Below, piece after piece: positions 20,226-62,325 of a DNA stretch of 64,000 bases (position 1 is its first letter; every line of letters begins with the position of its first letter). A program made the position numbers and the translations under genes. The notes beneath the pieces are model-generated. The model was not told the DNA's origin, searched no databases, and worked only from the letters and a program-made list of their open reading frames with translations. Source of the DNA: an uncultured Bacteroidales bacterium (GTDB lineage: Bacteria > Bacteroidota > Bacteroidia > Bacteroidales > JAAYJT01); the NCBI GenBank assembly GCA_964349765.1, contig CAYGGZ010000010.1, positions 1,277-65,276 on the forward strand, in the 5' to 3' direction.

Positions 20226-23200
20226 AGATCCTGGTTTCTTCAAAACGATACCAGCTCATTAAAGGCGCAGGCATGTTTTTTATGTTTGCGATCGCACAAC
20301 TAACCGTTACCCTGACAAACGGACAACAACACTCGTTCAGCACCAACAAATACTTGCTTGCTACAGAAATTGAATCATTTTTCGGGGAAAGCCAAGGTTT
20401 TCACAGGCAACGGCTGAATGATGTTGCCTCAAACATGCAGCGTTCGCTGGTTGCCGGCCATTTTAGCGATTTTCATGTGGCGGAAATGGCGAAGGTTGCT
20501 AACCGTATGATGAATCTGCAACTTCCTGCTTATCCTACGTTTTATTATTATTTTGGGAACGCATTAGAAATTATAAAATTCAATCAGGCTGAGTCCTTTT
20601 TCAACGATTGGAATTCCGGGGTGCTTGTTTTGCTACAGGAGCCAGTGCGAACCAACCTCGACAAGTTCTTGTTGTTCAGCCACCAGTTTTTTAATCAACG
20701 TACTCTTTATGAAAGCAATTCGGTTAGATGGGATATAAGAAACGGTTCGTGGAAGTTTCAAACAGACTCTATACCACTGCTGATTGTTACCGGAGCTGAT
20801 TTGATCTGTTATGCCGGAGCCGATAGCAGCAGAATAAAAAATGCATCTGGCACATATGACCCCTTCAGTATGAAGTGGACTGGAATTACCGGGCAGGTAA
20901 CCTGGGAAAGGGTATCATTTAGCAGCCACAAGGTGCACGCCTTATTGGGCAGGTATAGTATTCACATGCGATCATCAGGTTTTGAAGCCGATACCGCCTG
21001 GCTTCACTATCCTGAGTTATTATCTGTTCCCATTGCCGGAACGCTTCATGAACAGGCATCTCCAGGAATTACCCCGGCTAATTCAAACTACCCCAAATTT
21101 ACCTCTTTCGAAACTTCATTAAACATTACCAATATCTTCCCAGGAATTGACTTTACCGGTGGAATTGCTCTTGAGGGAAATAGGATGACAGGTTTTGGCG
21201 CTTTCAGAAACGATGCTGTGTTACTCATTCATTATCAGGAAAAACCGGTGGTTAGGCTTGCTTCCCGAAACTTTAACATTCGCAGCGATCGGATTACATC
21301 GCAGAGAGCGGCTACCACGATTTACTTCTGTAACGACTCTATTGTACATCCCGGCCTCGAAATGCGTTACTCAAACTCAAGCAATGAATTAACTCTTTTA
21401 CGGTCAGCAACCGGACTGCCTTCAAGCCCTTTCTTTAGCTCCTATCATGGCGTTGATATATATGTTGAAGCAATTTATTGGAATACCGGCCGTGCGGAAA
21501 TAGAATTCGGCGGTATACGCGGTCTGAAAAGAGAAAGTGAGGCTGTTTTTGAATCACAATACTATTTTACACCAACACGATTTTATCAGTTACAGGGCAT
21601 TGACGAATATCATCCCCTGGTTGCATTAAACGATTATGCACGGCTGATTTCTTCAAACACTTTTTACCATGAAGAACTTGCAACTTTCATGGGAATTAAC
21701 CTTTCGCAGGTTAGCGCAATGTTGATACATCTAACAACAAACGGCTTTGTACTCTACAACCCTGGAAGCGGAAAAGTGGTGGTAAAGGAGAGGTTAAGCC
21801 ACTATCTCGAGGCGTTTAACCATAAAAAAGACCATGACGTTATCCGAATTGTTTCGAGGGTCAACGAAACTGTAAACGCGGTTCTGAACATCGAAAACTG
21901 TAATTTGAGCTTAAGGGGTGTGCCCGAAGCAGTACTAAGTAATACACAACGTGTGAACATTTACCCGGCAGGAGGAGAAATTGTGCTTACAAGAAACCTC
22001 GGAATAGAGTTCACAGGGAATATTCATGCAGGATTTTTCGATTTTTACGTTGGACCTAGCGTTTTTGATTACAATAGCTTCAGTTTGCTCCTGCCTCAGG
22101 TTGACTCGCTCAGCTTTGTAGTTCCGGTAGAAACACCCGGCAAACCAAAAGAGCTTGTAAGAGTGAAAACCGTTATTTCAAATATCAGCGGAGAATTATT
22201 GATTGGCCATCCCCATAACAAGTCGGGAAGATTGAACCAACCTCAATATCCGGCGTTCCGCTCAAAAACCGACTCTTATGTGTATTTCAATCAGACCTAT
22301 GTGCAAAATGGGGTTTACGGAAAAGATCGGTTCTACTACCATGTTTTACCGTTTGAAATTGATAGCCTGCACAGCTTTACAACAGTTGGAATGAGTTTCA
22401 ACGGATATCTTTTTTCGGGAGGTATCATTCCGGAAATTAGCGAGCCACTCAGAGTACAGCCCGACTTTTCGCTTGGCTTTCAAACTTCCTCACCGCTCAA
22501 TAATGCTCCCGTATACAACGGTGCTGCTTCTTTTACAGGATCACTGGCACTAAGTCATAAAGGCTTGATTGGGGCTGGAATTATCAGTTATCTGAACGCT
22601 ACGATGGAAGGAGATTCCTTGCTATTCCATCCCGATTCTCTTATGGCGAACCGGTGCAATTTCCATTTGGCTGAAATCCCCGGATCGCTTGAGTTTCCGG
22701 TTGTACAAGCAGAAAATACCGCAATTGTCTGGCATCCCGGCGAGGGATTGGCTATTCTCACAAACCACCCCTCTTATTCTTTTATGCTTTTCAATCATCA
22801 GATTCAACTGAGCGGGACACTCGAATTCGGCCCCAAAGGTTTATTTGGCGCCGGAACAGCCAGATGGCAACAAGCTGTATGGCAATCTGGCAGATATAGT
22901 TTCACACGCAATTCCCTGTCGGCTGAATGGTGCGATTTTTCCCTGGAGCATCCGTCGCACGGAATAATATTCATGTCAACAGGATATGATTTTGACTTCG
23001 AACTCCTTTCAAGGCAAGGGCAGTTTAACCGAAATGGCGATAACGCTGTTGTTTCGTTTCCCTTTAACAAGTACTCTACCCGTGCCGACGCTTTTAGGTG
23101 GGAGGCCGATTACGACGAGATTCACCTGAACAACGAATATACTGCCGAACGCCTGAGCATCTCAACACTAAACTCTAGCAGGCTTTCACCGTCTGATTTT

Positions 23201-24712
23201 GGGAAGTCGGTTTTGCTTTCGTTGTGCCCCGACCAGGATTCACTTGGGTTTTTCGCCATAACAGCTCAGTACGATATGCGAAACCTCGAACTAAATGCAT
23301 TTGAAGTGCCTTCTGTTCAGATAGCTAATACCGCTGTTATTCCTGTTGATGGCCGTGTTACAATCAGTAACAACGGAACTATCCGCCCTTTGAAAGGTGC
23401 CATGCTATACATTTCTCCTGAGAACCTGATTCACACTTTCTATAATGTTGATATTGAAATTTACAACAGAAATTCTTTTAGTGCGTCGGGATACCTGATG
23501 TTTAACGGCGGTGAGGGATATGAAAGCGAAATACATTTTTCAGAAATTAAAGCCGATTCGCTTGGAATAGCATTCGCCAATGCACAAATACATGGCGCCG
23601 GAATGTTTATTAATCCCTATTTCCGCTTCAAAGGCTCGGTTCATATCGGAAGTGCGGCCAGATATCTGTTCTTAAACGGCTATTACAAGCCAACACAATA
23701 TTTTAAAGGATTTAATCCTAAGTGGGTGCGGTTTGCCTCTGCGCTACAAAGCAATAACATTGTGTTCCCTGCAACCTTTCCGATGAAAGGCGAAGCCGGC
23801 GAAACAATCTATGCCACATTACACTACAATTTAACATCAGGCAAATTGTACCCGGCTTTCTTTGCCTCTAAAACATTTTCGGGCGACACCGCGCTGATTG
23901 TTGCAGAGGGCTTTGTTGGGTATGACACTGTTGGTAAATTCTACTACATCTCAAACACCCCTTATGAACATGGAGGCTCAAACCGTAACATCATACGGTT
24001 CAATACGCAGGAATCGAAAATAAGCGGCAATGGGAAAATCAACTTTGGCCATGAGTTTGGACGCGTAAGCATGCTCCCGGCCGGTTCAATAAAACATTAT
24101 GCTACCGCCGATTCAACAATTTTAGAATTGTTTGCTGCGTTTGATTTTTTCTTTTCAAGAGAGGCATTTGATCTGATAATAAAGAAGTTTGAAAATGCAA
24201 CGTTGCAAAACGTTTCGTTTAAACCCACAGTTGAAGCAGGTATTCATGCGCTTTTCAAGCCTGATGAAGCTGAGCGGTTGATATCGGAGCTCGGCACACG
24301 CGGTTCTCTTCGCAGGCTGCCCGATAATCTTTCGCGCGCCTTGATATTTAACGACTTAACAATGATCTGGAATCATCGAACCAGGTCGTTTACAAGCACA
24401 GGCCCTTTAGGTGTAATGATTATAAACGGACAGCAGGTGAACAAATATGTTGAAGGTCGGGTAGAGATCATTCGTCGTACGGAAGGCGATGCTTTCAATA
24501 TTTACCTCGAACAAGCGCCAAACCAATGGTTCTTTTTTCATTACAGTGCTGGAGTATTGCATGCAGTATCGTCGCTGGATGAGTTTAACTCGGCAATTGC
24601 CAAAATGAGTGAAGAACGCCGCATGCTTCCGGCCCGTAAGCAGGAAGTGCCGTACCGCTTTGTTGCCGGCACTACTCATATGCGAGATGCCTTTGTGCAA
24701 CGAATGCGCTAA
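20222..24712 (+). CDS. Very large (~1496 aa) uncharacterised, probably secreted or envelope protein
   Basis: The long ORF begins at 20159 in the track. I prefer ATG 20222, which forms an ATGA overlap with the prmA stop and gives MKILVSSKRYQLIKGAGMFFMFAIAQL with a signal-like segment. No family recognised. It is rich in N/S/F/Y and looks beta-rich. Confidence 0.6.
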   Translation: MKILVSSKRYQLIKGAGMFFMFAIAQLTVTLTNGQQHSFSTNKYLLATEIESFFGESQGFHRQRLNDVASNMQRSLVAGHFSDFHVAEMAKVANRMMNLQLPAYPTFYYYFGNALEIIKFNQAESFFNDWNSGVLVLLQEPVRTNLDKFLLFSHQFFNQRTLYESNSVRWDIRNGSWKFQTDSIPLLIVTGADLICYAGADSSRIKNASGTYDPFSMKWTGITGQVTWERVSFSSHKVHALLGRYSIHMRSSGFEADTAWLHYPELLSVPIAGTLHEQASPGITPANSNYPKFTSFETSLNITNIFPGIDFTGGIALEGNRMTGFGAFRNDAVLLIHYQEKPVVRLASRNFNIRSDRITSQRAATTIYFCNDSIVHPGLEMRYSNSSNELTLLRSATGLPSSPFFSSYHGVDIYVEAIYWNTGRAEIEFGGIRGLKRESEAVFESQYYFTPTRFYQLQGIDEYHPLVALNDYARLISSNTFYHEELATFMGINLSQVSAMLIHLTTNGFVLYNPGSGKVVVKERLSHYLEAFNHKKDHDVIRIVSRVNETVNAVLNIENCNLSLRGVPEAVLSNTQRVNIYPAGGEIVLTRNLGIEFTGNIHAGFFDFYVGPSVFDYNSFSLLLPQVDSLSFVVPVETPGKPKELVRVKTVISNISGELLIGHPHNKSGRLNQPQYPAFRSKTDSYVYFNQTYVQNGVYGKDRFYYHVLPFEIDSLHSFTTVGMSFNGYLFSGGIIPEISEPLRVQPDFSLGFQTSSPLNNAPVYNGAASFTGSLALSHKGLIGAGIISYLNATMEGDSLLFHPDSLMANRCNFHLAEIPGSLEFPVVQAENTAIVWHPGEGLAILTNHPSYSFMLFNHQIQLSGTLEFGPKGLFGAGTARWQQAVWQSGRYSFTRNSLSAEWCDFSLEHPSHGIIFMSTGYDFDFELLSRQGQFNRNGDNAVVSFPFNKYSTRADAFRWEADYDEIHLNNEYTAERLSISTLNSSRLSPSDFGKSVLLSLCPDQDSLGFFAITAQYDMRNLELNAFEVPSVQIANTAVIPVDGRVTISNNGTIRPLKGAMLYISPENLIHTFYNVDIEIYNRNSFSASGYLMFNGGEGYESEIHFSEIKADSLGIAFANAQIHGAGMFINPYFRFKGSVHIGSAARYLFLNGYYKPTQYFKGFNPKWVRFASALQSNNIVFPATFPMKGEAGETIYATLHYNLTSGKLYPAFFASKTFSGDTALIVAEGFVGYDTVGKFYYISNTPYEHGGSNRNIIRFNTQESKISGNGKINFGHEFGRVSMLPAGSIKHYATADSTILELFAAFDFFFSREAFDLIIKKFENATLQNVSFKPTVEAGIHALFKPDEAERLISELGTRGSLRRLPDNLSRALIFNDLTMIWNHRTRSFTSTGPLGVMIINGQQVNKYVEGRVEIIRRTEGDAFNIYLEQAPNQWFFFHYSAGVLHAVSSLDEFNSAIAKMSEERRMLPARKQEVPYRFVAGTTHMRDAFVQRMR

Positions 24713-43714: not shown

Positions 43715-43745
43715 GCAGAAAATCCTGAACAATCAGGTTTTCTGC
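43715..43745. terminator. Bidirectional hairpin between convergent gcvP and the 416-aa gene
   Basis: gcagaaaatcctga-acaa-tcaggttttctgc (13 bp with one bulge), flanked by A-runs upstream and T-runs downstream. The 3' arm overlaps the last codons of the minus-strand gene. Confidence 0.6.
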
Positions 43746-44983
43746 TTTTTCTTTCGTGCTGCAGGAAAGAGCACGTTATTCAGAATCAGCCGGTAACCCG
43801 GCGAATTTGGATGCAGGTTGAGATTGGTTGGGGGATCGCCAACGAAATGTTTGTAGTCCTCGGGATCGTGGCCACCAAAGAAAGTAAATGTGCCTTTGCC
43901 GAAAGTTCCATGAATGTATCGCGCTTCGCCCCAGGCTTTGTTTTCGCCAAGGATAACAACAGTGGGTTTTATTGTTTCGCGGCGAAATGCTGTTGATTGC
44001 CCCATAAATCCCTCTATAATTGTTTCATGATTTTGGTTGAGCATTGTGGGTACAGGATCCCACTTAGCAGAAAACTCAAACAGGGTAAAATGATCCAACG
44101 CTTGATTACGACCGGTTTTGGGAACGTCGATACTTGATTTTGCGTATTCGTAGGGATTCATCACAAGTTGGAAATTATGAAAAGCAAAGGTTCGACTAAA
44201 GTCAAGGTTTTCTTGTGCGTTTGGATCAGCCGGATCGCCGTCGAACATAGCTTCGACTATATCAACTCCTTCGGCTGCAAGGGCAATATCAAGACTTTCG
44301 GGTGCTGAGCACATGGCAAAAAGGTAGCCTCCACCCGCAACAAATTCCTGAATGTTTTTTGCAACAGCTAATTTTAATTGCGAAACTGTTCCAAATCCAA
44401 GCCTGTCGGCCATTTCATTCAAAATTCTTTCCTCCTGCTGATACCAGGGTGCATTGCGATATGCTGCATAAAATTTTCCGAACTGACCAGTGAAGTCTTC
44501 ATGGTGAAGATGAAGCCAATCGTACATGGGCAAAACGCCTTTGATAATTTCTTCGTTGTAGATAATATCATAGGGTATTTCGGCATAGGTGAGAGCCAGA
44601 GTTACTGCATCGTTCCATGGCTGGGTGAGAGGGGGAATATAAACAGCAATCCTTGGAGCTTTGTGCAGTTTTACCACCTCCATGTTTACCGAAGGGGAGG
44701 AGATATACTGAAGAATACCTGCAGCCTGTGTCTCAGATATTACCTGGTATGATATATCACGAACTATGCATTCATTTTCAAATTGCTGATGGTGGTCGAA
44801 CATAAAACTTCCGCCCCGATAGTTCAACAGCCAACTTACCTCAACGTCATACGTAAGAACGTAGTAAGCAATTCCATACGCTTTTAGGTGGTTGCGCTGC
44901 GTGTTGTCCATTGGAATGAGGATATGGGCTGCCTTGAGGTTAAATGAGATCAGAACCAGGATCAGAAGCAATATGTTTTTCAT
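43733..44983 (-). CDS. Conserved hypothetical secreted protein
   Basis: 416 aa. Signal peptide MKNILLLILVLISFNLKA. No catalytic motif recognised. Confidence 0.5.
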   Translation of the reverse strand: MKNILLLILVLISFNLKAAHILIPMDNTQRNHLKAYGIAYYVLTYDVEVSWLLNYRGGSFMFDHHQQFENECIVRDISYQVISETQAAGILQYISSPSVNMEVVKLHKAPRIAVYIPPLTQPWNDAVTLALTYAEIPYDIIYNEEIIKGVLPMYDWLHLHHEDFTGQFGKFYAAYRNAPWYQQEERILNEMADRLGFGTVSQLKLAVAKNIQEFVAGGGYLFAMCSAPESLDIALAAEGVDIVEAMFDGDPADPNAQENLDFSRTFAFHNFQLVMNPYEYAKSSIDVPKTGRNQALDHFTLFEFSAKWDPVPTMLNQNHETIIEGFMGQSTAFRRETIKPTVVILGENKAWGEARYIHGTFGKGTFTFFGGHDPEDYKHFVGDPPTNLNLHPNSPGYRLILNNVLFPAARKKKQKT

Positions 44984-52461: not shown

Positions 52462-52504
52462 GGATTATTGTGATTGCTCAATACTTTTCTTCATTGAAAA
52501 CGAA

Positions 52505-52512
52505 TATATTTG
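52505..52512 (+). promoter_or_regulatory. Bacteroidota sigma-A -7 box (TAnnTTTG) upstream of paralogue 1
   Basis: tatatttg lies within gaaaacgaatatatttgtagttcacaaa, a block shared with paralogues 2 and 3. It implies a leader of about 240 nt. Confidence 0.5.
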
Positions 52513-52751
52513 TAGTTCACAAAAAAATACCTATTTTAGCCTGATTAATTCATAAATATCTATATTTTAGTGAAATTTAGTGCTTTGGTGTCTTTGTGGC
52601 GAAAAGTTCTTTCCCCCTAAGTCGCTAATATACAAAGGAAACACTAAGTTTATGAATTAAGCAGGTTAGCACTAATTAATGGGTGTAATTGTCTGAACAC
52701 GGCACATCACAAGAAAGGATAAATTATAAAGCCAAAAAGAAAGGATCGGTT

Positions 52752-54851
52752 ATGAGAACACATTTACTGTTACAGATTCTATTGCTGGCTGCGGTAATAA
52801 CCGCCCATAACCATCTATTTGCGCAGTCAGATTGGTTCTGGCAGAATCCTCTACCCACGGGGAGTTCTCTCGTTAGAGTCTCATTCATCGACGCCAACAG
52901 AGGAACGGCGGTGGGAGAGGCTGGCACAATTCTTAGCACCACCAATGGCGGCTTAAACTGGATAAGCCAGTCAAGCGGAACGACGAAGTGGTTAGTAGGC
53001 GTCTGTTTCACTGACGCCAACACAGGAACGGCGGTAGGAGAGGGGGGCACAATTCTTCGTACCACCGATGGCGGCTTAAACTGGATAAGCCAGTCAAGCG
53101 GAACGACAAATAATCTCAGGAGTGTCTCCTTCACCGACGCCAGCACTGGAACGGTGGTGGGAGATGCTGGCATAATTCTTCGCACCACCGATGGCGGCGC
53201 AAGCTGGATAAGGCAGACAAGTGGAACTACGGAGCATCTTGAGAGCGTCTCCTTCACCGACGCCAACACCGGAACGGCGGTGGGATGGGGTGGAACAATT
53301 CTTCGCACCAGCAATGGCGGCGCAAGCTGGATAAGCCAGTCAAGTGGAACAACAGGGTGGCTCTTTGGCGTCTCCTTCACCGACGCCAACACAGGAACGG
53401 TGGTGGGAAGTGATGGCACAATTCTTAGCACCACCAATGGCGGCGCAAGCTGGATAAGCCAATCAAGCGGAACCATGCGTGATCTCTATGACGTCTCCTT
53501 CACCGACGCCAACACAGGAATGGCGGTGGGATGGGGTGGCACAATTCTTCGCACCACCAATGGCGGCGCAAGCTGGATAAGCCAGTCAAGCGGAACGACG
53601 AGGTGGCTCATAGGCGTCTGCTTTACAGACGCCAACACAGGAACGGCGGTGGGAGACTTTGGCGCAATTCTTCGCACCACCAATGGCGGCGCAAGCTGGA
53701 TAAGCCAGTCAAGCGGAATACAACATGATCTCTTTGGCGTCTTCTTCACCGACGCCAATAGAGGAACAGCGGTGGGATGGGGTGGGACAATTCTTCGCAC
53801 CACCAATGGCGGCTTAAACTGGATAATCCAGACATGCGGAACGACGCAGCATCTCTGGGGCGTCTCCTTCACCGACGCTTACACAGGAACTGCGGTGGGG
53901 GAGGGTGGCACAATTCTTCGCACCACCGATGGCGGCTCAACTTGGATAAGCCAGACAAGCGGAACGACGCGACATTTCTATGCCCTCTGCTTCACCGACG
54001 CCAACACAGGAACGGCGGTGGGAGACTTTGGCACAATTCTTCGCACCACCAATGGCGGCTTAAGCTGGACAAGCCAGTTAAGCGGAACGACGAATTGGCT
54101 CTTTGCCGTCTGCTTCACCGACGCCAACACAGGAACGGCGGTGGGAGACTTTGGCACAATTCATCGCACCACCAATGGCGGCTCTAGCTGGACAAGTCAG
54201 TCAAGCGGAACGACGGCGTCTCTCTATGGCGTCTCCTTCACCGACGCCAACACAGGAACGGCGGTGGGATGGGGTGGCACAATTCTTCGCACCACCAATG
54301 GCGGCTTAAACTGGATACGCCAGTCAAGTGGAACGACGGTGCCACTCTATGGCGTCTCCTTTACCGATGCCAACATAGGAACGGTGGTGGGAAGCTATGG
54401 CACAATTCTTCGCACCACCGATGGCGGTGCAAGTTGGAAAATTCAGACAATCGGAACGATGCAGCATCTCTTTGGCGTCTCCTTCACCGACGCCAACACA
54501 GGAACGGCGGTGGGATTGGGTGGCACAATTCTTCGCACCACCACTGGAGGCGTTGGAATTAGGGAAGACTTTCTCTCCATTAACCCATCAGGTTTTTCGT
54601 TAATGCAGAACTTCCCTAATCCCTTTTACCCAAGTACCACAATACGGTTTTCTGTTCCCAGGTCAGGATTCGTCTCCCTTACGGTTTACGATCAGCTTTG
54701 GCGGGAAGTTGCTGTTTTGGTAAGTGGAGAGAGACCGGAGGGCACATATACGGTTGTGTGGGATGCAGCAGCACTAACCGGTGGCTTATATTTTTACCGC
54801 CTTCAGGGTACCGAATTCTCCGAAACGAAAAAAATGATATTGCTCAGATAA
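52752..54851 (+). CDS. Paralogue 1: secreted 14-blade Asp-box (BNR/Ycf48-like) repeat protein with T9SS type-A sorting domain
   Basis: Start taken at ATG 52752 (MRTHLLLQILLLAAVITAHNHLFAQ signal). There are 14 units of the form GTILRTTNGGxxWISQSSGTTxxLxxVSFTDANTGTAVGxx. The CTD is QNFPNPFYPSTTIRF...GGLYFYRL...KKMILLR. Confidence 0.85.
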   Translation: MRTHLLLQILLLAAVITAHNHLFAQSDWFWQNPLPTGSSLVRVSFIDANRGTAVGEAGTILSTTNGGLNWISQSSGTTKWLVGVCFTDANTGTAVGEGGTILRTTDGGLNWISQSSGTTNNLRSVSFTDASTGTVVGDAGIILRTTDGGASWIRQTSGTTEHLESVSFTDANTGTAVGWGGTILRTSNGGASWISQSSGTTGWLFGVSFTDANTGTVVGSDGTILSTTNGGASWISQSSGTMRDLYDVSFTDANTGMAVGWGGTILRTTNGGASWISQSSGTTRWLIGVCFTDANTGTAVGDFGAILRTTNGGASWISQSSGIQHDLFGVFFTDANRGTAVGWGGTILRTTNGGLNWIIQTCGTTQHLWGVSFTDAYTGTAVGEGGTILRTTDGGSTWISQTSGTTRHFYALCFTDANTGTAVGDFGTILRTTNGGLSWTSQLSGTTNWLFAVCFTDANTGTAVGDFGTIHRTTNGGSSWTSQSSGTTASLYGVSFTDANTGTAVGWGGTILRTTNGGLNWIRQSSGTTVPLYGVSFTDANIGTVVGSYGTILRTTDGGASWKIQTIGTMQHLFGVSFTDANTGTAVGLGGTILRTTTGGVGIREDFLSINPSGFSLMQNFPNPFYPSTTIRFSVPRSGFVSLTVYDQLWREVAVLVSGERPEGTYTVVWDAAALTGGLYFYRLQGTEFSETKKMILLR
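52860..54550 (+). repeat. 14 tandem 123-bp (41-codon) coding repeats inside paralogue 1
   Basis: The core ggcacaattcttcgcaccacc...ggcggc..agctggataagccagtcaagcggaacgacg...gtctccttcaccgacgccaacacaggaacggcggtggga recurs with period 123 bp. Confidence 0.9.
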
Positions 54852-54960
54852 GGGGCAATAGCAACTAACACGGCAAACTCTGACGCTTTCTTTGCCTTCC
54901 TGCCTGCCGAAGGCACTTCGGAACGTCGGTTGATAGGGTTCTGGTAAAGAACAGGAAAGA

Positions 54961-55010
54961 AATTAGACCGAATTAATCGTTTAAGCATTGTCAAATGCTG
55001 AATTTGGGTT
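54961..55010. repeat. Modular intergenic repeat, copy 6 (module A, inverted) between paralogues 1 and 2
   Basis: aattagaccgaattaatcgtttaagcattgtcaaatgctgaatttgggtt is the reverse complement of the aacccaaatt.agcatttgacaatgcttaaacgattaattcgg type. Confidence 0.8.
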
Positions 55011-55031
55011 CACGGAAAACGAATATATTTG
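55003..55031 (+). promoter_or_regulatory. Putative -33 (TTTG) and -7 (TAtaTTTG) promoter of paralogue 2
   Basis: TTTG is at 55003-55006, inside the end of repeat copy 6. tatatttg is at 55024-55031, giving a 17-nt spacer and a leader of about 88 nt. Confidence 0.5.
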
Positions 55032-55119
55032 TAGTTCACAAAGCATTGTGTGTGTTTTTGCTAGACGCTTTAGTTGCATTTGTTACTTGAATAAACCAAA
55101 CAAAAAGAAAAGAACACTT

Positions 55120-57222
55120 ATGAAAACACATTTACTGTTGCGCCTTCTATTACTTACTGCGGTAATAACCGCCCATAACCATCTATTTGCGCAGTCAGGT
55201 TGGTTCTACCAGAATCCGCTGCCCCAGGGAAATCCTCTTTATGGCGTCTCCTTCACCGATGCCAACACAGGAACGGCGGTTGGAGCAATGGGCACAATTA
55301 TTCGCACCACCGATGGCGGCTTAAACTGGATAATCCAGTCAAGCGGAGCAGAGGAGTGTCTTTATGGCGTCTCCTTCACAGACGCCAACACAGGAACGGC
55401 GGTGGGAGACTGGGGCACAATTCTTCGTACCACCGATGGCGGCTTAAACTGGATAAGCCAGTCAAGCGGAACGACAAATAATCTCAGGAGTGTCTCCTTC
55501 ACCGACGCCAGCACTGGAACGGTGGTGGGAGAGGGTGGCACAATTCTTCGCACCACCGATGGTGGCTCAAGCTGGATAAGTCAGTGGAGCGGAACGATGG
55601 AGTGGCTCTTGGGCGTCTCCTTCACCGACGTTAACAGAGGAACGGTGGTGGGATTGGGTGGCACAATTCTTCGCACCACCAATGGCGGCGCAAGCTGGAT
55701 TAGCCAGACAAGCGGAACGAAGTATGATCTCCATAGCGTCTGCTTCACCGACGCCAACAGAGGAACGGCGGTGGGAGGCTGGGGCACAATTCTTCGCACC
55801 ACCAATGGCGGCGCAAGCTGGATAAGCCAGACAAGCGGAACGACGCAGTGGCTCTGGAGCGTCTGCTTCACCGACGTCAACACAGGAACGGCGGTGGGAG
55901 ACTTGGGCGCAATTCTTCGCACCACAAACGGCGGCGCAAGCTGGATAAGCCAGTCAAGCGGAACAACGTATAATCTCCATAGCGTCTCCTTCACCGACGC
56001 CAACACCGGAACGGTGGTGGGACAGGCTGGCACAATTCTTCGCACCACCGATGGCGGCGCAAGCTGGATAAGCCAGTTAAGCGGTACGACGGAGGGGCTC
56101 TTTGGCGTCTGCTTCACTGACGCCAACACCGGAACGGCGGTGGGAAATTGGGGCACAATTCTTCGCACCACCAATGGAGGCTCAAGCTGGATAAGCCAGT
56201 CAAGCGGAACGACGCAGGTACTCTATGGCGTCTCCTTCACCGACGCCAACACAGGAACTGTGGTGGGAAGCTGGGGCACAATTCTTCGCACCACCAATGG
56301 CGGCGCAAGCTGGATAAGCCAGTCAAGCGGAACGACGCAGTTGCTCTTAGGCGTCTCCTTCACCGACGCCAACACAGGGACTGCGGTGGGAGAGGGTGGC
56401 ACAATTCTTCGCACCACCAATGGCGGTTCAAGCTGGGTAAGCCAGTCAAGCGGAACGACGCAGTGGCTCTGGAGCATCTGCTTCACCGATGCCAACACAG
56501 GAACGGCGGTGGGAGAATGGGGCACAATTCTTCGCACCACCGATGGCGGCTCAAGCTGGATCAGCCAGTCAAGCGGAACGACGAATTCTCTCCGTGCCGT
56601 CTCCTTCACCGACGCCAACACCGGAACGGTGGTGGGAGACTTGGGCACAATTCTTCGCACCACCAATGGCGGCGCAAGCTGGATAAGCCAGTCAAGCGGA
56701 ACGTGGGCGTTGCTCATTGGCGTTTCCTTCACCGACGCCAATACAGGAATGGCGGTGGGAACAGGTGGCACAATTCTTCGCACCACCAATGGTGGCTCAA
56801 GCTGGATAAGCCAGTCAAGCGGAACGATGCAGCATCTCTATGGCGTCACCTTTACCGACACCAACATAGGAACGGTGGTGGGAGACTTCGGCACAATTCT
56901 TCGCACAAACACAGGAGGTGTTGTGGGAATTAGGGAAGACTTTCTCTCCATTAACCCATCAGGTTTTTCGTTAATGCAGAACTTCCCTAATCCCTTTTAC
57001 CCAAGTACCACAATACGGTTTTCTGTTCCCAGGTCAGGATTCGTCTCCCTTACGGTTTACGATCAGCTTTGGCGGGAAGTTGCTGTTTTGGTAAGTGGAG
57101 AGAGACCGGAGGGCACATATACGGTTGTGTGGGATGCAGCAGCACTAACCGGTGGCTTATATTTTTACCGCCTTCAGGGTACCGAATTCTCCGAAACGAA
57201 AAAAATGATATTGCTCAGATAA
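55120..57222 (+). CDS. Paralogue 2: secreted 14-blade Asp-box repeat protein with T9SS sorting domain
   Basis: Start at ATG 55120 (MKTHLLLRLLLLTAVITAHNHLFAQ). It has 14 blades. The CTD-coding DNA appears identical by eye to that of paralogue 1. Confidence 0.85.
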   Translation: MKTHLLLRLLLLTAVITAHNHLFAQSGWFYQNPLPQGNPLYGVSFTDANTGTAVGAMGTIIRTTDGGLNWIIQSSGAEECLYGVSFTDANTGTAVGDWGTILRTTDGGLNWISQSSGTTNNLRSVSFTDASTGTVVGEGGTILRTTDGGSSWISQWSGTMEWLLGVSFTDVNRGTVVGLGGTILRTTNGGASWISQTSGTKYDLHSVCFTDANRGTAVGGWGTILRTTNGGASWISQTSGTTQWLWSVCFTDVNTGTAVGDLGAILRTTNGGASWISQSSGTTYNLHSVSFTDANTGTVVGQAGTILRTTDGGASWISQLSGTTEGLFGVCFTDANTGTAVGNWGTILRTTNGGSSWISQSSGTTQVLYGVSFTDANTGTVVGSWGTILRTTNGGASWISQSSGTTQLLLGVSFTDANTGTAVGEGGTILRTTNGGSSWVSQSSGTTQWLWSICFTDANTGTAVGEWGTILRTTDGGSSWISQSSGTTNSLRAVSFTDANTGTVVGDLGTILRTTNGGASWISQSSGTWALLIGVSFTDANTGMAVGTGGTILRTTNGGSSWISQSSGTMQHLYGVTFTDTNIGTVVGDFGTILRTNTGGVVGIREDFLSINPSGFSLMQNFPNPFYPSTTIRFSVPRSGFVSLTVYDQLWREVAVLVSGERPEGTYTVVWDAAALTGGLYFYRLQGTEFSETKKMILLR
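55230..56915 (+). repeat. 14 tandem 123-bp coding repeats inside paralogue 2
   Basis: Same repeat core and the same 123-bp period. Confidence 0.9.
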
Positions 57223-57271
57223 GGGGCAATAGCAACTAACACGGCAAACACCGACGCTTTCTTTGCCTTCC

Positions 57272-57298
57272 TGCGTGCCGAAGTGCCTTCGGCACGCA
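57272..57298 (+). terminator. Perfect 12-bp hairpin in the 3' flank of paralogue 2; degenerate versions follow paralogues 1, 3 and 4
   Basis: tgcgtgccgaag-tgc-cttcggcacgca. Copies at about 54905-54925, 59640-59660 and 62200-62222 keep only ccgaag-gca-cttcgg. No U-tract follows. Confidence 0.45.
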
Positions 57299-57331
57299 TG
57301 TGAATTGGGCTATGGTAAAGAACAGGAAAGA

Positions 57332-57381
57332 AATTAGACCGAATTAATCGTTTATGCATTGTCAAATGCTGAATTTGGGTT
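57332..57381. repeat. Modular intergenic repeat, copy 7 (module A, inverted) between paralogues 2 and 3
   Basis: Same as copy 6 with one substitution (tttatgcatt). Confidence 0.8.
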
Positions 57382-57402
57382 CACGGAAAACGAATATATT
57401 TG
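57374..57402 (+). promoter_or_regulatory. Putative -33/-7 promoter of paralogue 3
   Basis: Same sequence block as for paralogue 2, with tatatttg at 57395-57402. Confidence 0.5.
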
Positions 57403-57490
57403 TAGTTCACAAAGCATTGTGTGTGTTTTTGCTAGACGCTTTAGTTGCATTTGTTACTTGAATAAACCAAACAAAAAGAAAAGAACACTT

Positions 57491-59587
57491 ATGAAAACAC
57501 ATTTACTGTTGCGCCTTCTATTATTTACTGCGGTAATGACCGCCCATAACCATCTATTTGCGCAGTCAGGTTGGTTCTACCAAAATCCGCTGCCCACAGG
57601 GAATATTCTCTGGGGCGTCTCCTTCACCGATTCCAACACAGGGACAACGGTGGGAGGGAATGGCACAATTCTTCGCACCACCGATGGCGGCTTAAACTGG
57701 ATAATCCAGTCAAGCGGAACGAAGGAGCATCTCTATGGCGTCTGCTTCACCGACGCCCAAACAGGAACCGTGGTGGGAGATAATGGCACAATTCTTCGCA
57801 CCACCGATGGCGGCTCAAGCTGGATAAGCCAGTCAAGCGGAACGACAAATAATCTCAGGAGTGTCTCCTTCACGGACGCCAGCACAGGAACGGCGGTGGG
57901 AGAATGGGGTACAATTCTTCGCACCACCGATGGGGGCTCAAGTTGGATAAGTCGGTGGAGCGGAACGATGGAGTGGCTCTTGGGCGTCTACTTCACCGAC
58001 GTTAACAGAGGAACGGTGGTGGGAGCATGGGGCACAATTCTTAGCACCACCAATGGCGGCTCAAGCTGGATAAGCCAGTCAAGCGGAACAACGCTTGCTC
58101 TCTATGGCGTCTCCTTCTCCGACGCCAGCAGAGGAACGGCGGTGGGATCAGGTGGCACAATTCTTCGCACCACCAATGGCGGCTCAAGCTGGATAAGCCA
58201 GTCAAGCGGAACAACGCGTGCTCTCTATGGCGTCTCCTTCACCGACGCCAACACAGGAACGGCGGTGGGAGAATGGGGCACAATTCTTCGCACCACCGAT
58301 GGCGGCACAAGCTGGATAAGCCAGTCAAGCGGAACGACGTGGAGTCTCAATGGTGTCTCATTCACCGGTGACACCACCGGAACAGCGGTGGGAGGTTCTG
58401 GCACAATTCTTTGCACCACCAATGGCGGCTTAAACTGGGTAAACCAGTCAAGTGGAACAACGCATAATCTCTATGACGTCTTCTTTACCGACGCCACCAC
58501 CGGAACAGCGGTGGGAGGTTCTGGCACAATTCTTCGCACCACCAATGGCGGCTTAAACTGGGTAAACCAGCCAAGCGGAACAACGCTTAATCTCTATGAC
58601 GTCTTCTTTACCGACGCCAGCACAGGAACGGTTGTCGGAATGGATGGCACAATTCTTCGCACAACCGATGGCGGCTTAAGCTGGATAAGCCAGTCAAGCG
58701 GAACGTCGGAGTTTCTCTATGGAGTCTCCTTCACCGACGCCAACACTGGAACGGTGGTGGGCTCGGATGGCACAATTCTTCGCACCACCGATGGCGGCTT
58801 AAGGTGGATAAGCCAGTCAAGCGGAACGATGAATTCTCTCCGTGCCGTCTCCTTCACCGACGCCAACACAGGAACGGCAGTGGGATGGGCTGGCACAATT
58901 CTTCGCACCACCGATGGCGGCTCAAGCTGGATCAGCCAGTCAAGCGGAACGACGAATCCTCTCCGTGCCGTCTCCTTCACCGACGCCAACAGAGGAACGG
59001 CGGTGGGAGCATTGGGCACAATTCTTCGCACCACCGATGGCGGCTTAAACTGGATAAGCCAGTCAAGCGGAACGACGCAGTGGCTCTATGGCGTCTTCTT
59101 CACCGATGCCAACACAGGAACAGCAGTGGGATGGGCTGGCACAATTCTTCGCACCACCGATGGCGGCACAAGCTGGATAAGGCAGTCAAGCGTAACAACG
59201 GTGTCTCTCTTGAGCGTCTCCTTCACCGACGCCAACACAGGAACGGCGGTGGGAGAATGGGGCACAATTATTCGCACTCTACCCGTTACGGGAATTAGGG
59301 AAGACTTTTTTTCCACCAACCCATCAGGTTTTTCGTTAATGCAGAACTTCCCTAATCCCTTTTACCCAAGTACCACAATACGGTTTTCTGTTCCCAGGTC
59401 AGGATTCGTCTCCCTTACGGTTTACGATCAGCTTTGGCGGGAAGTTGCTGTTTTGGTAAGTGGAGAGAGACCGGAGGGCACATATACGGTTGTGTGGGAT
59501 GCAGCAGCACTAACCGGTGGCTTATATTTTTACCGCCTTCAGGGTACCGAATTCTCCGAAACGAAAAAAATGATATTGCTCAGATAA
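57491..59587 (+). CDS. Paralogue 3: secreted 14-blade Asp-box repeat protein with T9SS sorting domain
   Basis: Start at ATG 57491 (MKTHLLLRLLLFTAVMTAHNHLFAQ). It has 14 blades. The CTD is nearly identical to those of paralogues 1 and 2. Confidence 0.85.
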   Translation: MKTHLLLRLLLFTAVMTAHNHLFAQSGWFYQNPLPTGNILWGVSFTDSNTGTTVGGNGTILRTTDGGLNWIIQSSGTKEHLYGVCFTDAQTGTVVGDNGTILRTTDGGSSWISQSSGTTNNLRSVSFTDASTGTAVGEWGTILRTTDGGSSWISRWSGTMEWLLGVYFTDVNRGTVVGAWGTILSTTNGGSSWISQSSGTTLALYGVSFSDASRGTAVGSGGTILRTTNGGSSWISQSSGTTRALYGVSFTDANTGTAVGEWGTILRTTDGGTSWISQSSGTTWSLNGVSFTGDTTGTAVGGSGTILCTTNGGLNWVNQSSGTTHNLYDVFFTDATTGTAVGGSGTILRTTNGGLNWVNQPSGTTLNLYDVFFTDASTGTVVGMDGTILRTTDGGLSWISQSSGTSEFLYGVSFTDANTGTVVGSDGTILRTTDGGLRWISQSSGTMNSLRAVSFTDANTGTAVGWAGTILRTTDGGSSWISQSSGTTNPLRAVSFTDANRGTAVGALGTILRTTDGGLNWISQSSGTTQWLYGVFFTDANTGTAVGWAGTILRTTDGGTSWIRQSSVTTVSLLSVSFTDANTGTAVGEWGTIIRTLPVTGIREDFFSTNPSGFSLMQNFPNPFYPSTTIRFSVPRSGFVSLTVYDQLWREVAVLVSGERPEGTYTVVWDAAALTGGLYFYRLQGTEFSETKKMILLR
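57600..59280 (+). repeat. 14 tandem 123-bp coding repeats inside paralogue 3
   Basis: Same repeat core and the same 123-bp period. Confidence 0.9.
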
Positions 59588-59752
59588 GGGGCAATAGCAA
59601 CTAACACGGCAAACACCGACGCTTTCTTTGCCTTCCTGCGTACCGAAGGCACTTCGGAACGTCGGTTGATAGGGTTCTGGTTATGCTCAGGAAAGAAATT
59701 ATTGTGGCTGCTCCGCTCTCATTTTGGCGGGCAACATGTTCTGGCATTTCAA

Positions 59753-59760
59753 TATATTTG
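59753..59760 (+). promoter_or_regulatory. -7 box (TAtaTTTG) upstream of paralogue 4
   Basis: tatatttg within ttcaatatatttgtccatg. It implies a leader of about 285 nt. Confidence 0.4.
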
Positions 59761-60044
59761 TCCATGCATTTTTACCCCAAAATCAAACTATTAATTACAG
59801 ATGTAAAATATTGGATGGGTGGGGTGGAAACGATTAAACATTATAGTGCCATGCAAGTGATAAGTAACTATATGTAACTTGACTGAAAAAGTGTTTTTTT
59901 GATATAAAACTCAATAAATTGTTTATGTTTGTTCCTGCATTGAATGAATCGATAAACGGGTTCTCCGATGTTATCAAATCAATAAGAAAAAATGAATTTT
60001 TAGGACCCCCCAACAATTTTAAAAACAAAAAGAAAGGATCACTT

Positions 60045-62150
60045 ATGAAAACACACTTATTGTTGCAAATTCTATTGCTGACTGTGGTAATAACCGCCCA
60101 TAACCGTCTATATGCCCAGCAAGGTTGGTTTTGGCAGAATCCGCTGCCCACAGGGAATATTCTCTGGGGTGTCTCCTTCACCGATTCCAACACAGGGACA
60201 GCGGTGGGAGGGAATGGCACAATTCTTCGCACCACCGATGGCGGCTTAAACTGGATAAGCCAGTCAAGCGGGGCGTGGCAGGATCTCAGGTGCGTCTCCT
60301 TCACCGACGCCAACACAGGAACGGCAGTGGGAACAAGTGGCACAATTCTTCGCACCACCAATGGCGGCTCAAGCTGGATACGCCAGACAAGCGGAACGGT
60401 TGACTGGCTCTATTGCGTGTTTTTCACCGACGCCAACACAGGAACGGTAGTGGGAGAGGGTGGCACAATTCTTCGCACCATCAATGGTGGCTCAAGCTGG
60501 ATAAGCCTGTCAAGCGGAACGACGAATCATCTCAATGGCGTCTTCTTCACCGACGCCAACACAGGAACCGTGGTGGGAAATAATGGCATAATTCTTCGCA
60601 CCACCAATGGCGGATTAAGCTGGATAAGCCAGTCAAGCGGAGAGGGGTATGATCTCCATGACGTTTACTTCACCGACGCCAACAGAGGAACGGTGGTGGG
60701 ATCAGGTGGCACAATTCTTCACACCACCGATGGAGGCTTAAGCTGGGTAAGCCAGTCAAGCGGAGTGGGGTCGTCTTTCTATAGCGTCTCCTTTTCCGAC
60801 GCCAACACCGGAACGGCGGTGGGAACTGGTGGAAGAATCCTTCGCACGACCAATGGCGGCTCAAGCTGGACAAGCCAGTCAAGCGGAACAACAGAATTGC
60901 TCTTGGACGTCTATTTTACTGGCGCAAACACAGGAACGGCGGTGGGATGGGATGGTACAATTCTTCGCACAACCAATGGCGGCACAAGCTGGACAAGCCA
61001 GTCAAGCGGAACATGGCAGGATCTCTCTAGTGTATCCTTCATCGACGCCCACACTGGAACGGTTGTGGGAAATGGTGGCACAATTCTTCACACCACCAAT
61101 GGCGGCTCAAGCTGGATAAGCCAGTCAAGCGGAACAACGCATCATCTCTATGACGTCTCCCTCACCGACTCCAACACAGGAACGGTGGTCGGAATGGATG
61201 GCACAATTCTTCGCACAACCGATGGCGGCTCAACCTGGATAAGCCAGTCAAGCGGAACGACACAGTGGCTCTATGGCGTCTTCTTTACCGACTTCAATAC
61301 AGGAACGGCGGTGGGAAGCTGGGGCACAATTCTTCGCACCACCGATGGCGGCTCAAGCTGGATAAGCCAGTCAAGCGGAACGTCGGAGTTTCTCTATGGA
61401 GTCTACTTCACCGACGCCAACACTGGAACGGTGGTGGGAAGCTGGGGCACAATTCTTCGCACCACCGATGGCGGTTCAAGCTGGATAAGCCAGTCAAGCG
61501 GAACGACGGACCATCTCGAGAGCGTCTCCTTCACTGACGCCAATAGAGGAATGGTGGTGGGAGCGGATGGCACATTTCTTCGCACCACCAATGGCGGCTT
61601 AAGCTGGATAAGCCAGTCAAGCGGAACGGGGCAGGATCTCAAGAGCGTCTCCTTCGCCGACGCCAACACAGGAATGGCGGTTGGAAACTACGGCACAGTT
61701 CTTCGCACCACCAATGGTGGCTTAAGCTGGAAAAGCCAGTCATGCGGAACAACGGAGCATCTTTATGGCGTCTCCTTCACCAACGCCAACACCGGAACGG
61801 TGGTGGGAAAATTCGGAATAATTCTTCGCACCAACACAGGAGGTATTGTGGGAATTAGGGAAGACTTTCTCTCCATCAACCCGTCAGGATTCTCTTTGAT
61901 GCAGAACTACCCAAATCCGTTTTACTCCAATACCACCATACAATTTACTATCCCCCGGTCAGGATACGTCTCCCTTACTGTTTATGATCAGCAATTGCGA
62001 AAAGTTGCAGTGTTGGTAAGTGGAGAGAGATCGGCAGGGACATATTCTGTAGTGTGGGATGCTCCCCCATCACTGGCAGGTGGCTTGTATTTTTACCGCA
62101 TTCAGAGTAGCGAATTCTTCGAAACGAAAAAAATGATATTGCTCAGATAA
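60045..62150 (+). CDS. Paralogue 4: secreted 14-blade Asp-box repeat protein with a diverged T9SS sorting domain
   Basis: Start at ATG 60045 (MKTHLLLQILLLTVVITAHNRLYAQ). It has 14 blades. The CTD QNYPNPFYSNTTIQF...GGLYFYRIQ...KKMILLR differs from 1-3 at many nucleotides. Confidence 0.85.
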   Translation: MKTHLLLQILLLTVVITAHNRLYAQQGWFWQNPLPTGNILWGVSFTDSNTGTAVGGNGTILRTTDGGLNWISQSSGAWQDLRCVSFTDANTGTAVGTSGTILRTTNGGSSWIRQTSGTVDWLYCVFFTDANTGTVVGEGGTILRTINGGSSWISLSSGTTNHLNGVFFTDANTGTVVGNNGIILRTTNGGLSWISQSSGEGYDLHDVYFTDANRGTVVGSGGTILHTTDGGLSWVSQSSGVGSSFYSVSFSDANTGTAVGTGGRILRTTNGGSSWTSQSSGTTELLLDVYFTGANTGTAVGWDGTILRTTNGGTSWTSQSSGTWQDLSSVSFIDAHTGTVVGNGGTILHTTNGGSSWISQSSGTTHHLYDVSLTDSNTGTVVGMDGTILRTTDGGSTWISQSSGTTQWLYGVFFTDFNTGTAVGSWGTILRTTDGGSSWISQSSGTSEFLYGVYFTDANTGTVVGSWGTILRTTDGGSSWISQSSGTTDHLESVSFTDANRGMVVGADGTFLRTTNGGLSWISQSSGTGQDLKSVSFADANTGMAVGNYGTVLRTTNGGLSWKSQSCGTTEHLYGVSFTNANTGTVVGKFGIILRTNTGGIVGIREDFLSINPSGFSLMQNYPNPFYSNTTIQFTIPRSGYVSLTVYDQQLRKVAVLVSGERSAGTYSVVWDAPPSLAGGLYFYRIQSSEFFETKKMILLR
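60155..61845 (+). repeat. 14 tandem 123-bp coding repeats inside paralogue 4
   Basis: Same repeat core, with somewhat more substitutions than in paralogues 1-3. Confidence 0.9.
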
Positions 62151-62259
62151 GGGGCAATAGCAACTAACACGGCAAACTCTGACGCTTTCTTTGCCTTCCT
62201 GCCTGCCGAAGGCACTTCGGAACGTCGGTTGATAGGGTTCTGGTAAAGAACAGGAAAGA

Positions 62260-62283
62260 AATTAGACCGAATTAATCTGGGTT
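62260..62283. repeat. Collapsed copy 8: only the two element ends, joined
   Basis: aattagaccgaattaatctgggtt. Its reverse complement, aacccagattaattcggtctaatt, joins the left end (aacccagattaa) directly to the right end (attaattcgg), with no internal hairpins. Confidence 0.6.
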
Positions 62284-62325
62284 TATTACTTGATCTAAGT
62301 TTCAACACCGCTTGTTGTCTGTAAT

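Follow-up and report, generated by a model that had tools for sequence, protein, structure and literature searches.

Four tandem genes encoding predicted T9SS-exported Asp-box double propellers with hypervariable blade positions in an uncultured Bacteroidales bacterium

What could be the role of four consecutive, closely related genes, each encoding a protein of about 700 amino acids (aa) built almost entirely of regular repeats, in an uncultured Bacteroidales bacterium? The question is raised by the window analysed here, a stretch of 64,000 nucleotides (nt) covering positions 1,277 to 65,276 of contig CAYGGZ010000010.1 (assembly GCA_964349765.1). The genes, hereafter g1 to g4, form a tandem array on the forward strand (52496-62277), delimited by cassette alignment and exact repeats, in which each of the four cassettes is composed of a promoter-like module, a gene and a conserved 3' module. 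An initial annotation, made from the nucleotide letters alone, had proposed that the products are exported by the secretion system of type IX (T9SS), fold as two seven-bladed beta-propellers and play a role in binding or surface variation rather than in catalysis. We find that the feature is real and that this interpretation is essentially right. It appears rather likely that g1-g4 are non-catalytic, surface-displayed binding proteins, which would diversify by shuffling of their repeat units and by positive selection.

The anatomy of the genes can be read directly in the sequence. Their starts, at 52752, 55120, 57491 and 60045, and the resulting spacings of 2368, 2371 and 2554 bp were reproduced as first reported. 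g1 (52752-54851, + strand) encodes 699 aa, g2 (55120-57222, +) 700 aa, g3 (57491-59587, +) 698 aa and g4 (60045-62150, +), the most divergent paralog, 701 aa. As already noticed in the initial annotation, the four products share a signal peptide of the form M(K/R)THLLL...AHN(H/R)L(F/Y)AQ, a WF(W/Y)QNPLP motif, a GIREDF linker placed after the repeats, and a C-terminal domain (CTD) of about 85 aa, which ends in KKMILLR in all four. In g1, the signal peptide covers residues 1-25 (52752-52826) and is followed by the N-terminal WFWQNPLP strand (about 52830-52862), 13 complete and one truncated 41-aa units (52863-54545), the GIREDF linker and the T9SS CTD (about 54585-54848). g2 and g3 have the same architecture as g1. 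At the DNA level, the CTD of g4 is 82-83% identical to those of g1-g3.

The number of units deserves a closer description, as the proposal of exactly 14 copies of the 41-aa unit per gene holds only in part. The GGxxW motif occurs 13 times in each protein with an exact period of 41 aa (residues 66+41n, from 66 to 558), and there are only 13 complete units per gene. A fourteenth unit is present in a truncated form of about 28 residues (…TTGGV-GIREDF; …RTLPVTGIREDF in g3, where it is the most degenerate) and is devoid of the Trp-bearing fourth strand. The N-terminal W28-F-W-Q-N-P-L-P resembles the W-I-S-Q-S-S-G-T piece missing from this fourteenth unit; W28 is nearly invariant in an alignment of 32 homologs, and a strand is placed at residues 28-30 in the AlphaFold model described below. 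The most economical reading is probably that of 14 blades, the last one being split between both ends of the propeller region in a so-called velcro closure.

The profile searches suggested in the initial annotation place g1-g4 in a known family. All four proteins match PSII_BNR (Pfam PF14870) with E values of 2e-49 to 5e-62 and scores of 169-210 bits, compared to a cutoff of 27, and TIGR04183 is also at or above its cutoff. To model the fold, an alignment-based AlphaFold (AF2) run was made on g4, a single-sequence run on g1 having been discarded as too weak (predicted local distance difference test, pLDDT, of 59). The g4 model has a mean pLDDT of 87.9, with most blades at 90-98 and a dip in confidence at the junction of blades 7 and 8, and is composed of an N-terminal strand, 14 four-stranded blades and a C-terminal beta-sandwich. 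When this model is compared to solved structures with Foldseek, the best full-length matches are all 7+7 double propellers, namely 2YMU, GH74 enzymes, Aip1, PorZ and UTP-type WD40 proteins (the latter with TMq up to 0.67), at an identity of only 13-16%. Ycf48 aligns with one half of the model (TMt about 0.75; root-mean-square deviation 3.3-3.5), and each of the two halves can be superposed on it with TMt 0.72-0.77. The confidence of the model and the Foldseek matches together support the prediction of two seven-bladed Asp-box propellers followed by a CTD beta-sandwich, the 7+7 arrangement itself being taken from the Foldseek matches.

Within this predicted fold, the residues of the unit vary in a very unequal way. 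In the 52 complete 41-aa units (13 in each of the four genes), entropy reaches about 3 bits at positions 1, 2, 4, 19 and 20, about 2 at position 5, about 1.9 at position 41 and about 1.8 at position 31, while the framework is almost invariant. The same partition is found at the nucleotide level: between-unit identity is 88% at framework codons versus 46% at hypervariable codons, and a single codon is used by at least 80% of the units at 23 of the 34 framework codons. Mean pairwise unit identity within genes is 0.68-0.75. The synonymous divergence (dS) of the framework is low and does not differ between paralogs (0.16-0.24) and units of the same gene (0.19-0.25), and sharing an index in different paralogs makes two units hardly more similar than a pair taken at random. 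The nearest neighbour of a unit is a unit of the same index in 13 cases, a unit of the same gene in 17 and another unit in the remaining 22, and the alignment of the cassettes reveals a mosaic of identity along their length. All these results point to the 52 complete units forming a single pool, as would be produced by concerted evolution or by a recent amplification followed by shuffling.

The variability of the hypervariable positions exceeds what relaxed constraint would allow. The per-position nonsynonymous difference (pN) is 0.61-0.69 at positions 1, 2, 4, 19 and 20, compared to a global synonymous value (pS) of 0.21, i.e. about three times the synonymous rate, and it is about twice this rate at positions 5, 31 and 41. 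For the hypervariable class, the ratio of nonsynonymous to synonymous divergence (dN/dS) is 1.4-2.6 in all ten comparisons, even when the dS of the same codons is used, versus 0.37-0.56 for the framework. As neutral loops cannot exceed the synonymous rate threefold, the diversity of these sites is being selected. A diversity-generating retroelement was considered as a source of this variation and rejected: no reverse transcriptase is encoded among the window open reading frames (ORFs) that were scanned (150 aa or longer, the array excluded), and the variation is spread over 56 units instead of being confined to one variable region.

Where do these residues lie in the fold? According to the secondary structure of the model, the D-A loop holds positions 41, 1 and 2, the beginning of strand A positions 4 and 5, and the B-C turn positions 19 and 20. 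By the established topology of propellers, all these sites of a four-stranded antiparallel blade would open on one face, the canonical ligand-binding 'top' face. The hypervariable residues should therefore all be exposed on the top face, with the Asp-box (C-D loop) and the TDANTG motif (A-B loop) on the opposite side; position 31, inside the Asp-box, is the sole elevated position off the top face. The composition of the hypervariable residues at these seven face positions is also biased: Trp is enriched 7.3-fold, Gly, Tyr, His and Asp are enriched as well, and there is a deficit of Lys, Ile, Val, Leu and Pro. Such a composition looks like that of a paratope or of a carbohydrate-binding site. 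The variable face may bind a ligand, for which our leading guesses are glycans or else the surface of another cell or particle. We regard the combination of concerted evolution with diversifying selection on what is predicted to be one propeller face, for which the sequences give clear evidence, as the notable addition to the initial annotation; we have not found it described in the literature for secreted Asp-box propellers.

An excess of dN over dS at exposed positions, with a framework evolving in concert, would also be produced if the array encoded a variable coat or decoy, likewise exported and anchored by the T9SS, whose hypervariable face is selected to avoid recognition, for example by phages, predators, host immunity or the toxins of competitors, without having a ligand of its own. 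Independently transcribed paralogs would then make it possible to switch or mix the variants shown at the surface. Each gene has a promoter-like module, the unit content varies among assemblies of the same strain, and tandem arrays recur elsewhere (see below). We nevertheless consider this explanation as rather unlikely. A strong enrichment of Trp and Tyr that is confined to one face would be expected of a binding site more than of a neutral decoy surface, and the unit differences between assemblies are maybe artefacts. Furthermore, promoter orientation is the same in all the colinear assemblies, and neither invertible-promoter repeats above chance nor a recombinase were found nearby; phase variation by invertible promoters was rejected, as the inverted repeats flanking the promoters (13-24 nt, 71-85% complementarity) are at the estimated chance level. 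A dedicated switching mechanism finds no support in retroelement or defence-system signals either.

The preference given in the initial annotation to binding over catalysis is reinforced by the conservation pattern of the family. Among the columns of the 32-homolog alignment, none with an acidic residue or His reaches 90% conservation, and the invariant ones are Gly, Thr and Trp in the propeller and Asn, Pro, Thr, Gly, Tyr and Lys in the CTD; in g1-g4, the variable residues are on one predicted face and rich in Trp, Tyr, Gly and Asp. This pattern bears on the possibility of a GH74-like or sialidase-like glycoside hydrolase, with a polysaccharide active site in the cleft between the propellers or on the top face. 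The GH74 xyloglucanases (2CN2, 5FKQ, 6P2O) do share with g1-g4 two seven-bladed Asp-box propellers in a chain of about 730 aa, and they are retrieved by Foldseek with TMq 0.52-0.54 over about 715-750 columns. The profile of the 32 homologs matches the GH74 entry 2CN2 with an E value of 7e-11, and the array has a GH13 enzyme, a major facilitator superfamily (MFS) transporter and a GH97 enzyme as neighbours. However, this profile match is restricted to residues 507-693 of the 2CN2 chain, and the full-length structural matches have the low identity given above. In GH74 enzymes, the blades are differentiated and the catalytic cleft carries a conserved pair of Asp, whereas the blades of g1-g4 are near-identical and no acidic column stands out. 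Moreover, the faces where an active site would be sought are precisely the hypervariable ones, the four paralogs differ at nearly all of their face residues, and related loci are not syntenic with glycan genes. A hydrolase is thus very improbable in our opinion.

The best sequence relatives with a solved structure lead to another possibility, that of a housekeeping propeller escorting a membrane protein or lipopolysaccharide, either as an assembly chaperone of the Ycf48 type or as a T9SS accessory factor of the PorZ type. Ycf48 is the best match of the 32-homolog profile among solved structures (E 1e-36 to 6e-38, over seven units), and Ycf48/HCF136 (PSII_BNR; 2XBG, 5OJR, 8AM5) has the same type of blade, F-D-x-N-x-G ... 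T-T-D-G-G-x-x-W. Yet Ycf48 has one seven-bladed propeller in about 330 aa and is a lipoprotein found in the lumen of oxygenic phototrophs, where it binds D1, unlike g1-g4, which are four paralogs of about 700 aa with two propellers, a T9SS CTD and a hypervariable face in a non-phototroph. With the NCBIfam Ycf48 equivalog NF010237, g1-g4 score 194-219 bits, below the cutoff of 326, and the organism is probably a Bacteroidales, the one named cluster-mate of a neighbouring protein coming from a metagenome-assembled Bacteroidales genome, with no photosystem genes in the window. PorZ (PG1604, 5M11) of Porphyromonas gingivalis, a surface protein of another Bacteroidota organism, also has two propellers and a T9SS CTD-type beta-sandwich and aligns over 815 columns (TMq 0.55), but at 12% identity and with no sign of a regular 41-aa Asp-box repeat in the fold-search match. 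According to the literature, PorZ is a conserved and essential T9SS component that binds A-LPS (A-type lipopolysaccharide), in contrast with the diversifying, multi-copy cargo that g1-g4 would represent. Four paralogs with hypervariable faces are ill-suited to a conserved, single-copy machine part, and we give this possibility hardly any credit.

If g1-g4 are binding proteins, they have to reach the cell surface. Export by the T9SS, as first proposed, agrees with TIGR04183 scores (T9SS type A CTD) of 23.0, 23.3, 24.1 and 28.4 bits, at or marginally above the cutoff of 23 in all four proteins, with a modelled C-terminal beta-sandwich of six strands (residues 629-699 in the AF2 model, pLDDT about 82-89), and with the presence of a second predicted CTD cargo in the window, an M1-family peptidase (6425-8368, +) that scores 29.3 bits with the Pfam CTD model PF18962 (cutoff 27). 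The presence of this second cargo supports the use of the T9SS route by the organism. With PF18962, g1-g4 score 18-22 bits, below the gathering threshold of 27. NxPNPF and the C-terminal KKMILLR, which we take to be the usual T9SS CTD motifs, are legible in the sequence. At the other end of the proteins, the signal peptide consists of M(K/R)THLLL, a hydrophobic core and FAQ or YAQ, without a lipobox Cys on inspection of the sequence, and Q25 is nearly invariant in the 32-sequence alignment. In the T9SS organisms studied so far, cleavage of the CTD is accompanied by attachment of the cargo to surface lipopolysaccharide. The g1-g4 products may likewise be secreted and anchored at the surface.

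Taken together, these elements suggest the following course of events. The precursor would cross the inner membrane by means of its Sec signal peptide and be cut before the conserved Gln. The protein would fold as two seven-bladed Asp-box, Ycf48-like beta-propellers, the WFWQ strand probably completing the split fourteenth blade, and the type A CTD would carry it across the outer membrane via the T9SS. Each blade would then present about 6-7 hypervariable residues (positions 41, 1, 2, 4, 5, 19 and 20) on the top face, and the four genes would thereby give rise to eight different surfaces, rich in Trp, Tyr, Gly and Asp, on one rigid scaffold. Recombination or gene conversion between units could keep the framework codons near-identical, with diversifying selection acting on the residues of the face.

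Several points weigh against this view of g1-g4 as binding proteins. The placement of the hypervariable residues on one face, as well as the velcro closure, depends on blade topology and on a secondary-structure string. Fast evolution of surface loops also fits escape from recognition rather than binding. The evidence for export includes one CTD model below its threshold and another one barely over its cutoff, and T9SS machinery genes were not seen within the 64-kb window. The members of the subfamily are without experimental function, and the PSII_BNR cluster of a published survey of fibrillar adhesins is classed there under 'ambiguous function'. Finally, the sequence read within the array varies with the assembly, and some of the mosaic identity could be an artefact.

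This last point led us to compare the window with other assemblies of the locus. The protein encoded by the neighbouring GH97 gene is found with an identical sequence on ten public contigs. Four of these, L081-L084, are MEGAHIT assemblies from four different ENA samples (ERZ27247823, ERZ27247798, ERZ27247803 and ERZ27247794), and their flanking sequence, between 40209 and the array, shows 100% identity to the window; they are therefore from the same strain. L081 and L082 each contain four genes in the order of the window, with every retained unit 98-100% identical to that of the window, which confirms how many genes there are and in which order. g1, g2 and g4 each occur intact, with 14 units, in at least one other assembly. 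Whole 123-nt units are nonetheless missing from all these short-read assemblies, at differing places: L081 is devoid of units 10-12 of g2 and of unit 8 of g3, L082 of units 8 and 11 of g3 and of unit 11 of g4, unit g1.01 is joined straight to unit g3.13 in L083, and g1 is fused to units of g2 in L084. These differences in repeat number are possibly short-read artefacts. The g2 deletion of L081 falls on a 61-nt exact repeat and is compatible with a low-k assembly jump as well as with real recombination; more generally, the discord between assemblies could reflect either their unreliability at this place or a real and rapid variation of the repeats.

The window is not above suspicion either. It contains exact repeats of 297-324 nt over the CTDs of g1-g3, and L081-L084, which agree exactly with one another in these regions, differ from it at 13 (g1), 2 (g2) and 7 (g3) positions. 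As four concordant assemblies differ from the window, its perfect CTD identity is probably the result of homogenisation by assembly or polishing, a very recent gene conversion being less likely. An exact look-up of g1-g4 in the protein collection found none of them, which fits these CTD differences, or other calls of the start codon. Could then the regular 14-unit genes be the product of repeat mis-assembly, the true locus having fewer genes or other numbers of units? The number of genes ranges from 2 to 4 in the same-strain short-read assemblies, their products measuring 247-701 aa, the CTDs of the window look homogenised, and it is documented that fungal repeats with high internal conservation defeat short-read assembly (PMC12222747). 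On the other hand, four genes in the same order, with near-identical retained units, are recovered in two other assemblies, and the intact genes mentioned above have been assembled elsewhere. Homologs from unrelated genomes have the same 14-unit architecture of about 700 aa, and the unit count of all four window genes is what the predicted 7+7 fold requires. An artefact of this kind is hence very unlikely to account for the array. A word of caution is still needed for metagenomics, as repeat counts and paralog identities in such genes are not trustworthy without long reads.

How common are such proteins? g1-g4 belong to a very large family, which is annotated but functionally uncharacterised: 266,629 representative clusters are retrieved at E up to 1e-3, of which 16,548 remain when the limit is lowered to 1e-30, mostly from metagenome-assembled genomes (MAGs) of Ignavibacteria, Bacteroidota, Calditrichia, KSB1 and Zixibacteria. 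They are named 'YCF48-related protein', 'T9SS type A sorting domain-containing protein' or 'photosystem II stability/assembly factor-like' in the sources, and no functional study of this subfamily was found in the literature. The members of 700-800 aa have, like g1-g4, a signal peptide, WFWQNPLP, 14 units and a CTD, and the longer ones, which are many, add Ig-like, fn3, PKD, FlgD_ig, dockerin or cohesin modules rather than catalytic domains. Direct homologs reach 61-66% identity. Most surveyed members are single at their locus in species-representative genomes, with an internal unit identity of 0.2-0.5, compared to about 0.70 in g1-g4, and none of 80 related genome loci shares neighbours with the window.

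Tandem expansion nevertheless appears to be a recurring trait of the family, since independent arrays are carried by two contigs from other metagenomes: five consecutive PSII_BNR and T9SS-CTD genes, followed by a Wzy_C/TPR (O-antigen ligase-like) gene, are found in L085 (3733-20192), and at least six consecutive ones in L086 (1-16344). Their units are more diverged than those of the window (identity of 0.47-0.49), with positions 1, 4, 19 and 20 again among the most variable, as well as position 2 in L085. The closest genome match, at 66% identity, is a single-copy, non-syntenic gene at 8636-10780 of the locus L002 (MAG Bacteroidetes WY2.bin74, JAKAGZ010000013.1), in which units 1-4 are near-identical, including at those positions where the units of the window are hypervariable (NPLYS...DY repeated). 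Its amplification seems more recent and not yet diversified, which would make it a useful point of comparison.

Turning to the expression of the array, each gene is preceded by its own TAnnTTTG box, as initially proposed, at 52505 for g1, 55024 for g2, 57395 for g3 and either 59753 or 59924 for g4. These boxes are of the Bacteroidota type and promoter-like in sequence. The module of g1, GAAAACGAATATATTTGTAGTTCACAAA (52496-52523, +), with the -7 box TATATTTG at 52505, is common to g2 and g3 and lies 247 nt before the ATG. In g2 (55015-55042, +) and g3 (57386-57413, +), the -7 box is 96 nt before the ATG, with a TTTG at -33-like spacing in g2. Upstream of the ATG, g3 and g2 are 89-100% identical in 100-nt windows and share a 168-nt exact repeat (54985/57356). 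g4 is preceded by a longer, unrelated intergenic region with two candidate -7 boxes, TATATTTG at 59753 and TATGTTTG at 59924 (59753-59931, +). The greater distance in g1 is due to about 150 extra nt in its leader, absent from g2 and g3, in which a 20-nt inverted repeat is observed (52537-52556/52649-52668; 90% complementary, 92 nt apart); an inserted element of small size, or else a structure that only the g1 leader has, could be at its origin.

The downstream hairpin attributed to each gene is confirmed as a GC-rich hairpin within a conserved 3' module of about 127 nt after every stop codon, but the U-tract of an intrinsic terminator is absent. These modules lie, on the + strand, at 54852-54978 after g1, 57223-57349 after g2, where the hairpin is the strongest (TGCGTGCCGAAG/CTTCGGCACGCA, 57272-57298), 59588-59701 after g3, where the module diverges after about 114 nt, and 62151-62277 after g4. 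The last one is identical to that of g1, within a 158-nt exact repeat (54821/62120), and sets the right edge of the array at about 62277. At the left boundary of the array, a 16-nt inverted repeat (52402-52417/52448-52463; 94% complementary, 30-nt loop), about 45 nt past the stop codon of the GH97 gene, is probably the terminator of this gene. The hairpins of the 3' modules are not called by a generic intrinsic-terminator scan. Generic sigma-70 promoter and intrinsic-terminator scans found fewer sites than in shuffled controls and are uninformative here, the paucity of sigma-70 sites being expected as the promoters are of the Bacteroidota type. An Rfam scan of the leaders and 3' modules gave zero matches at E up to 0.1.

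The genomic context had been described as a starch-utilisation cluster on one side and UDP-sugar biosynthesis genes on the other. The flanks are indeed of glycan type, with GH13 pullulanase, MFS and GH97 genes (alpha-glucan) upstream and genes for a UDP-xylose-synthase-like protein and UDP-glucose dehydrogenase downstream, but they do not form a canonical SusC/D locus. The view of the array as an accessory or foreign block is unsupported by its composition. The GC content of the array is 0.50-0.53 versus 0.42-0.45, and GC at third codon positions (GC3) is 0.60-0.64 in the repeats, compared to 0.44-0.51 in the signal-peptide and CTD parts and 0.41-0.46 in the neighbouring genes. Horizontal transfer was rejected as the cause, as the GC3 excess is restricted to the repeats and equals that of the consensus unit (0.66). 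It may rather reflect the codon choice of the amplified unit itself, 'frozen' in its copies; a contribution of GC-biased gene conversion is a speculation.

Other features of the window were recorded in passing. The segment 31264-34564 (+) encodes a TonB-dependent receptor that bears a CarboxypepD_reg domain and, after it, a DUF4249 protein, and a second TonB-dependent receptor is encoded at 9753-12149 (-); scans of the window identified no SusD-like partner for them. A 1517-aa ORF between prmA and dnaN (20159-24712, +) has neither Pfam nor NCBIfam matches. ORFs of 416 aa (43733-44983, -, between gcvP and dnaB), 424 aa (12347-13621, -) and 263 aa (8819-9610, -) have no matches in Pfam, NCBIfam or PADLOC. 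The PADLOC defence models gave zero matches for g1, g4 and the unannotated neighbours.

The evolutionary behaviour of the units has its closest parallels in propellers of another type. The top Foldseek match (E 3e-19), the cyanobacterial WRAP protein Npun_R6612 (2YMU), has 14 near-identical, recently amplified blades forming two seven-bladed propellers; unlike g1-g4, it is a WD40, intracellular protein fused to a STAND ATPase. In the literature, WRAP WD40 propellers are associated with blades amplified recently, with a fast turnover of the genes and with a possible function in innate immunity. In a survey of highly repetitive propellers, defined by an internal blade identity above 60% (Pereira & Lupas, 2022; PMC9218822), Asp-box/PSII-like cases account for about 5% of the dataset. 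g1-g4 satisfy this definition (0.68-0.75); term searches in the text of the survey retrieved no mention of secretion or hypervariable positions, nor are T9SS display and tandem paralog arrays discussed there for the PSII-like lineage. In the fungal HNWD/HET-E/HET-D WD40 proteins (PMC1805685, PMC2873952), repeats of about 41-42 aa are kept near-identical by concerted evolution and exchange between paralogs, a few positions of the binding face are under positive diversifying selection, and the number of repeats is unstable. g1-g4 resemble them by the concerted evolution of repeats across paralogs and by positive selection at a few positions of one predicted face. They differ in being secreted bacterial proteins without a signalling domain, whereas the HNWD proteins are WD40-based, intracellular receptors of the eukaryotic NLR type that trigger cell death.

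One tentative extension of these parallels, which we hold to be possible though doubtful, is that the array does outside a bacterial cell what the HNWD and WRAP systems do inside theirs, as a germline-encoded recognition repertoire with real, rapid and recombination-driven variation of the number of units. A single rigid Asp-box double-propeller scaffold, through shuffling between the tandem paralogs and positive selection on about 45 face residues per propeller, would keep giving rise to new binding specificities displayed by the T9SS.

PSII_BNR-type T9SS cargos are extremely abundant in environmental genomes of Bacteroidota, Ignavibacteriota, Calditrichota and KSB1, where they bear placeholder names only. 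The locus described here is an unusually clean example, in which the framework is near-frozen and a few residues of one predicted face evolve about three times faster than synonymous sites. It offers a testable hypothesis, namely that a binding face is diversifying, together with a consensus scaffold of natural origin on which structure and binding could be studied or binders engineered. If the repertoire proposed above were to prove true, the 'YCF48-related' T9SS cargos would constitute a major class, hitherto unrecognised, of programmable binders at the surface of Bacteroidota, Ignavibacteriota and members of related phyla.

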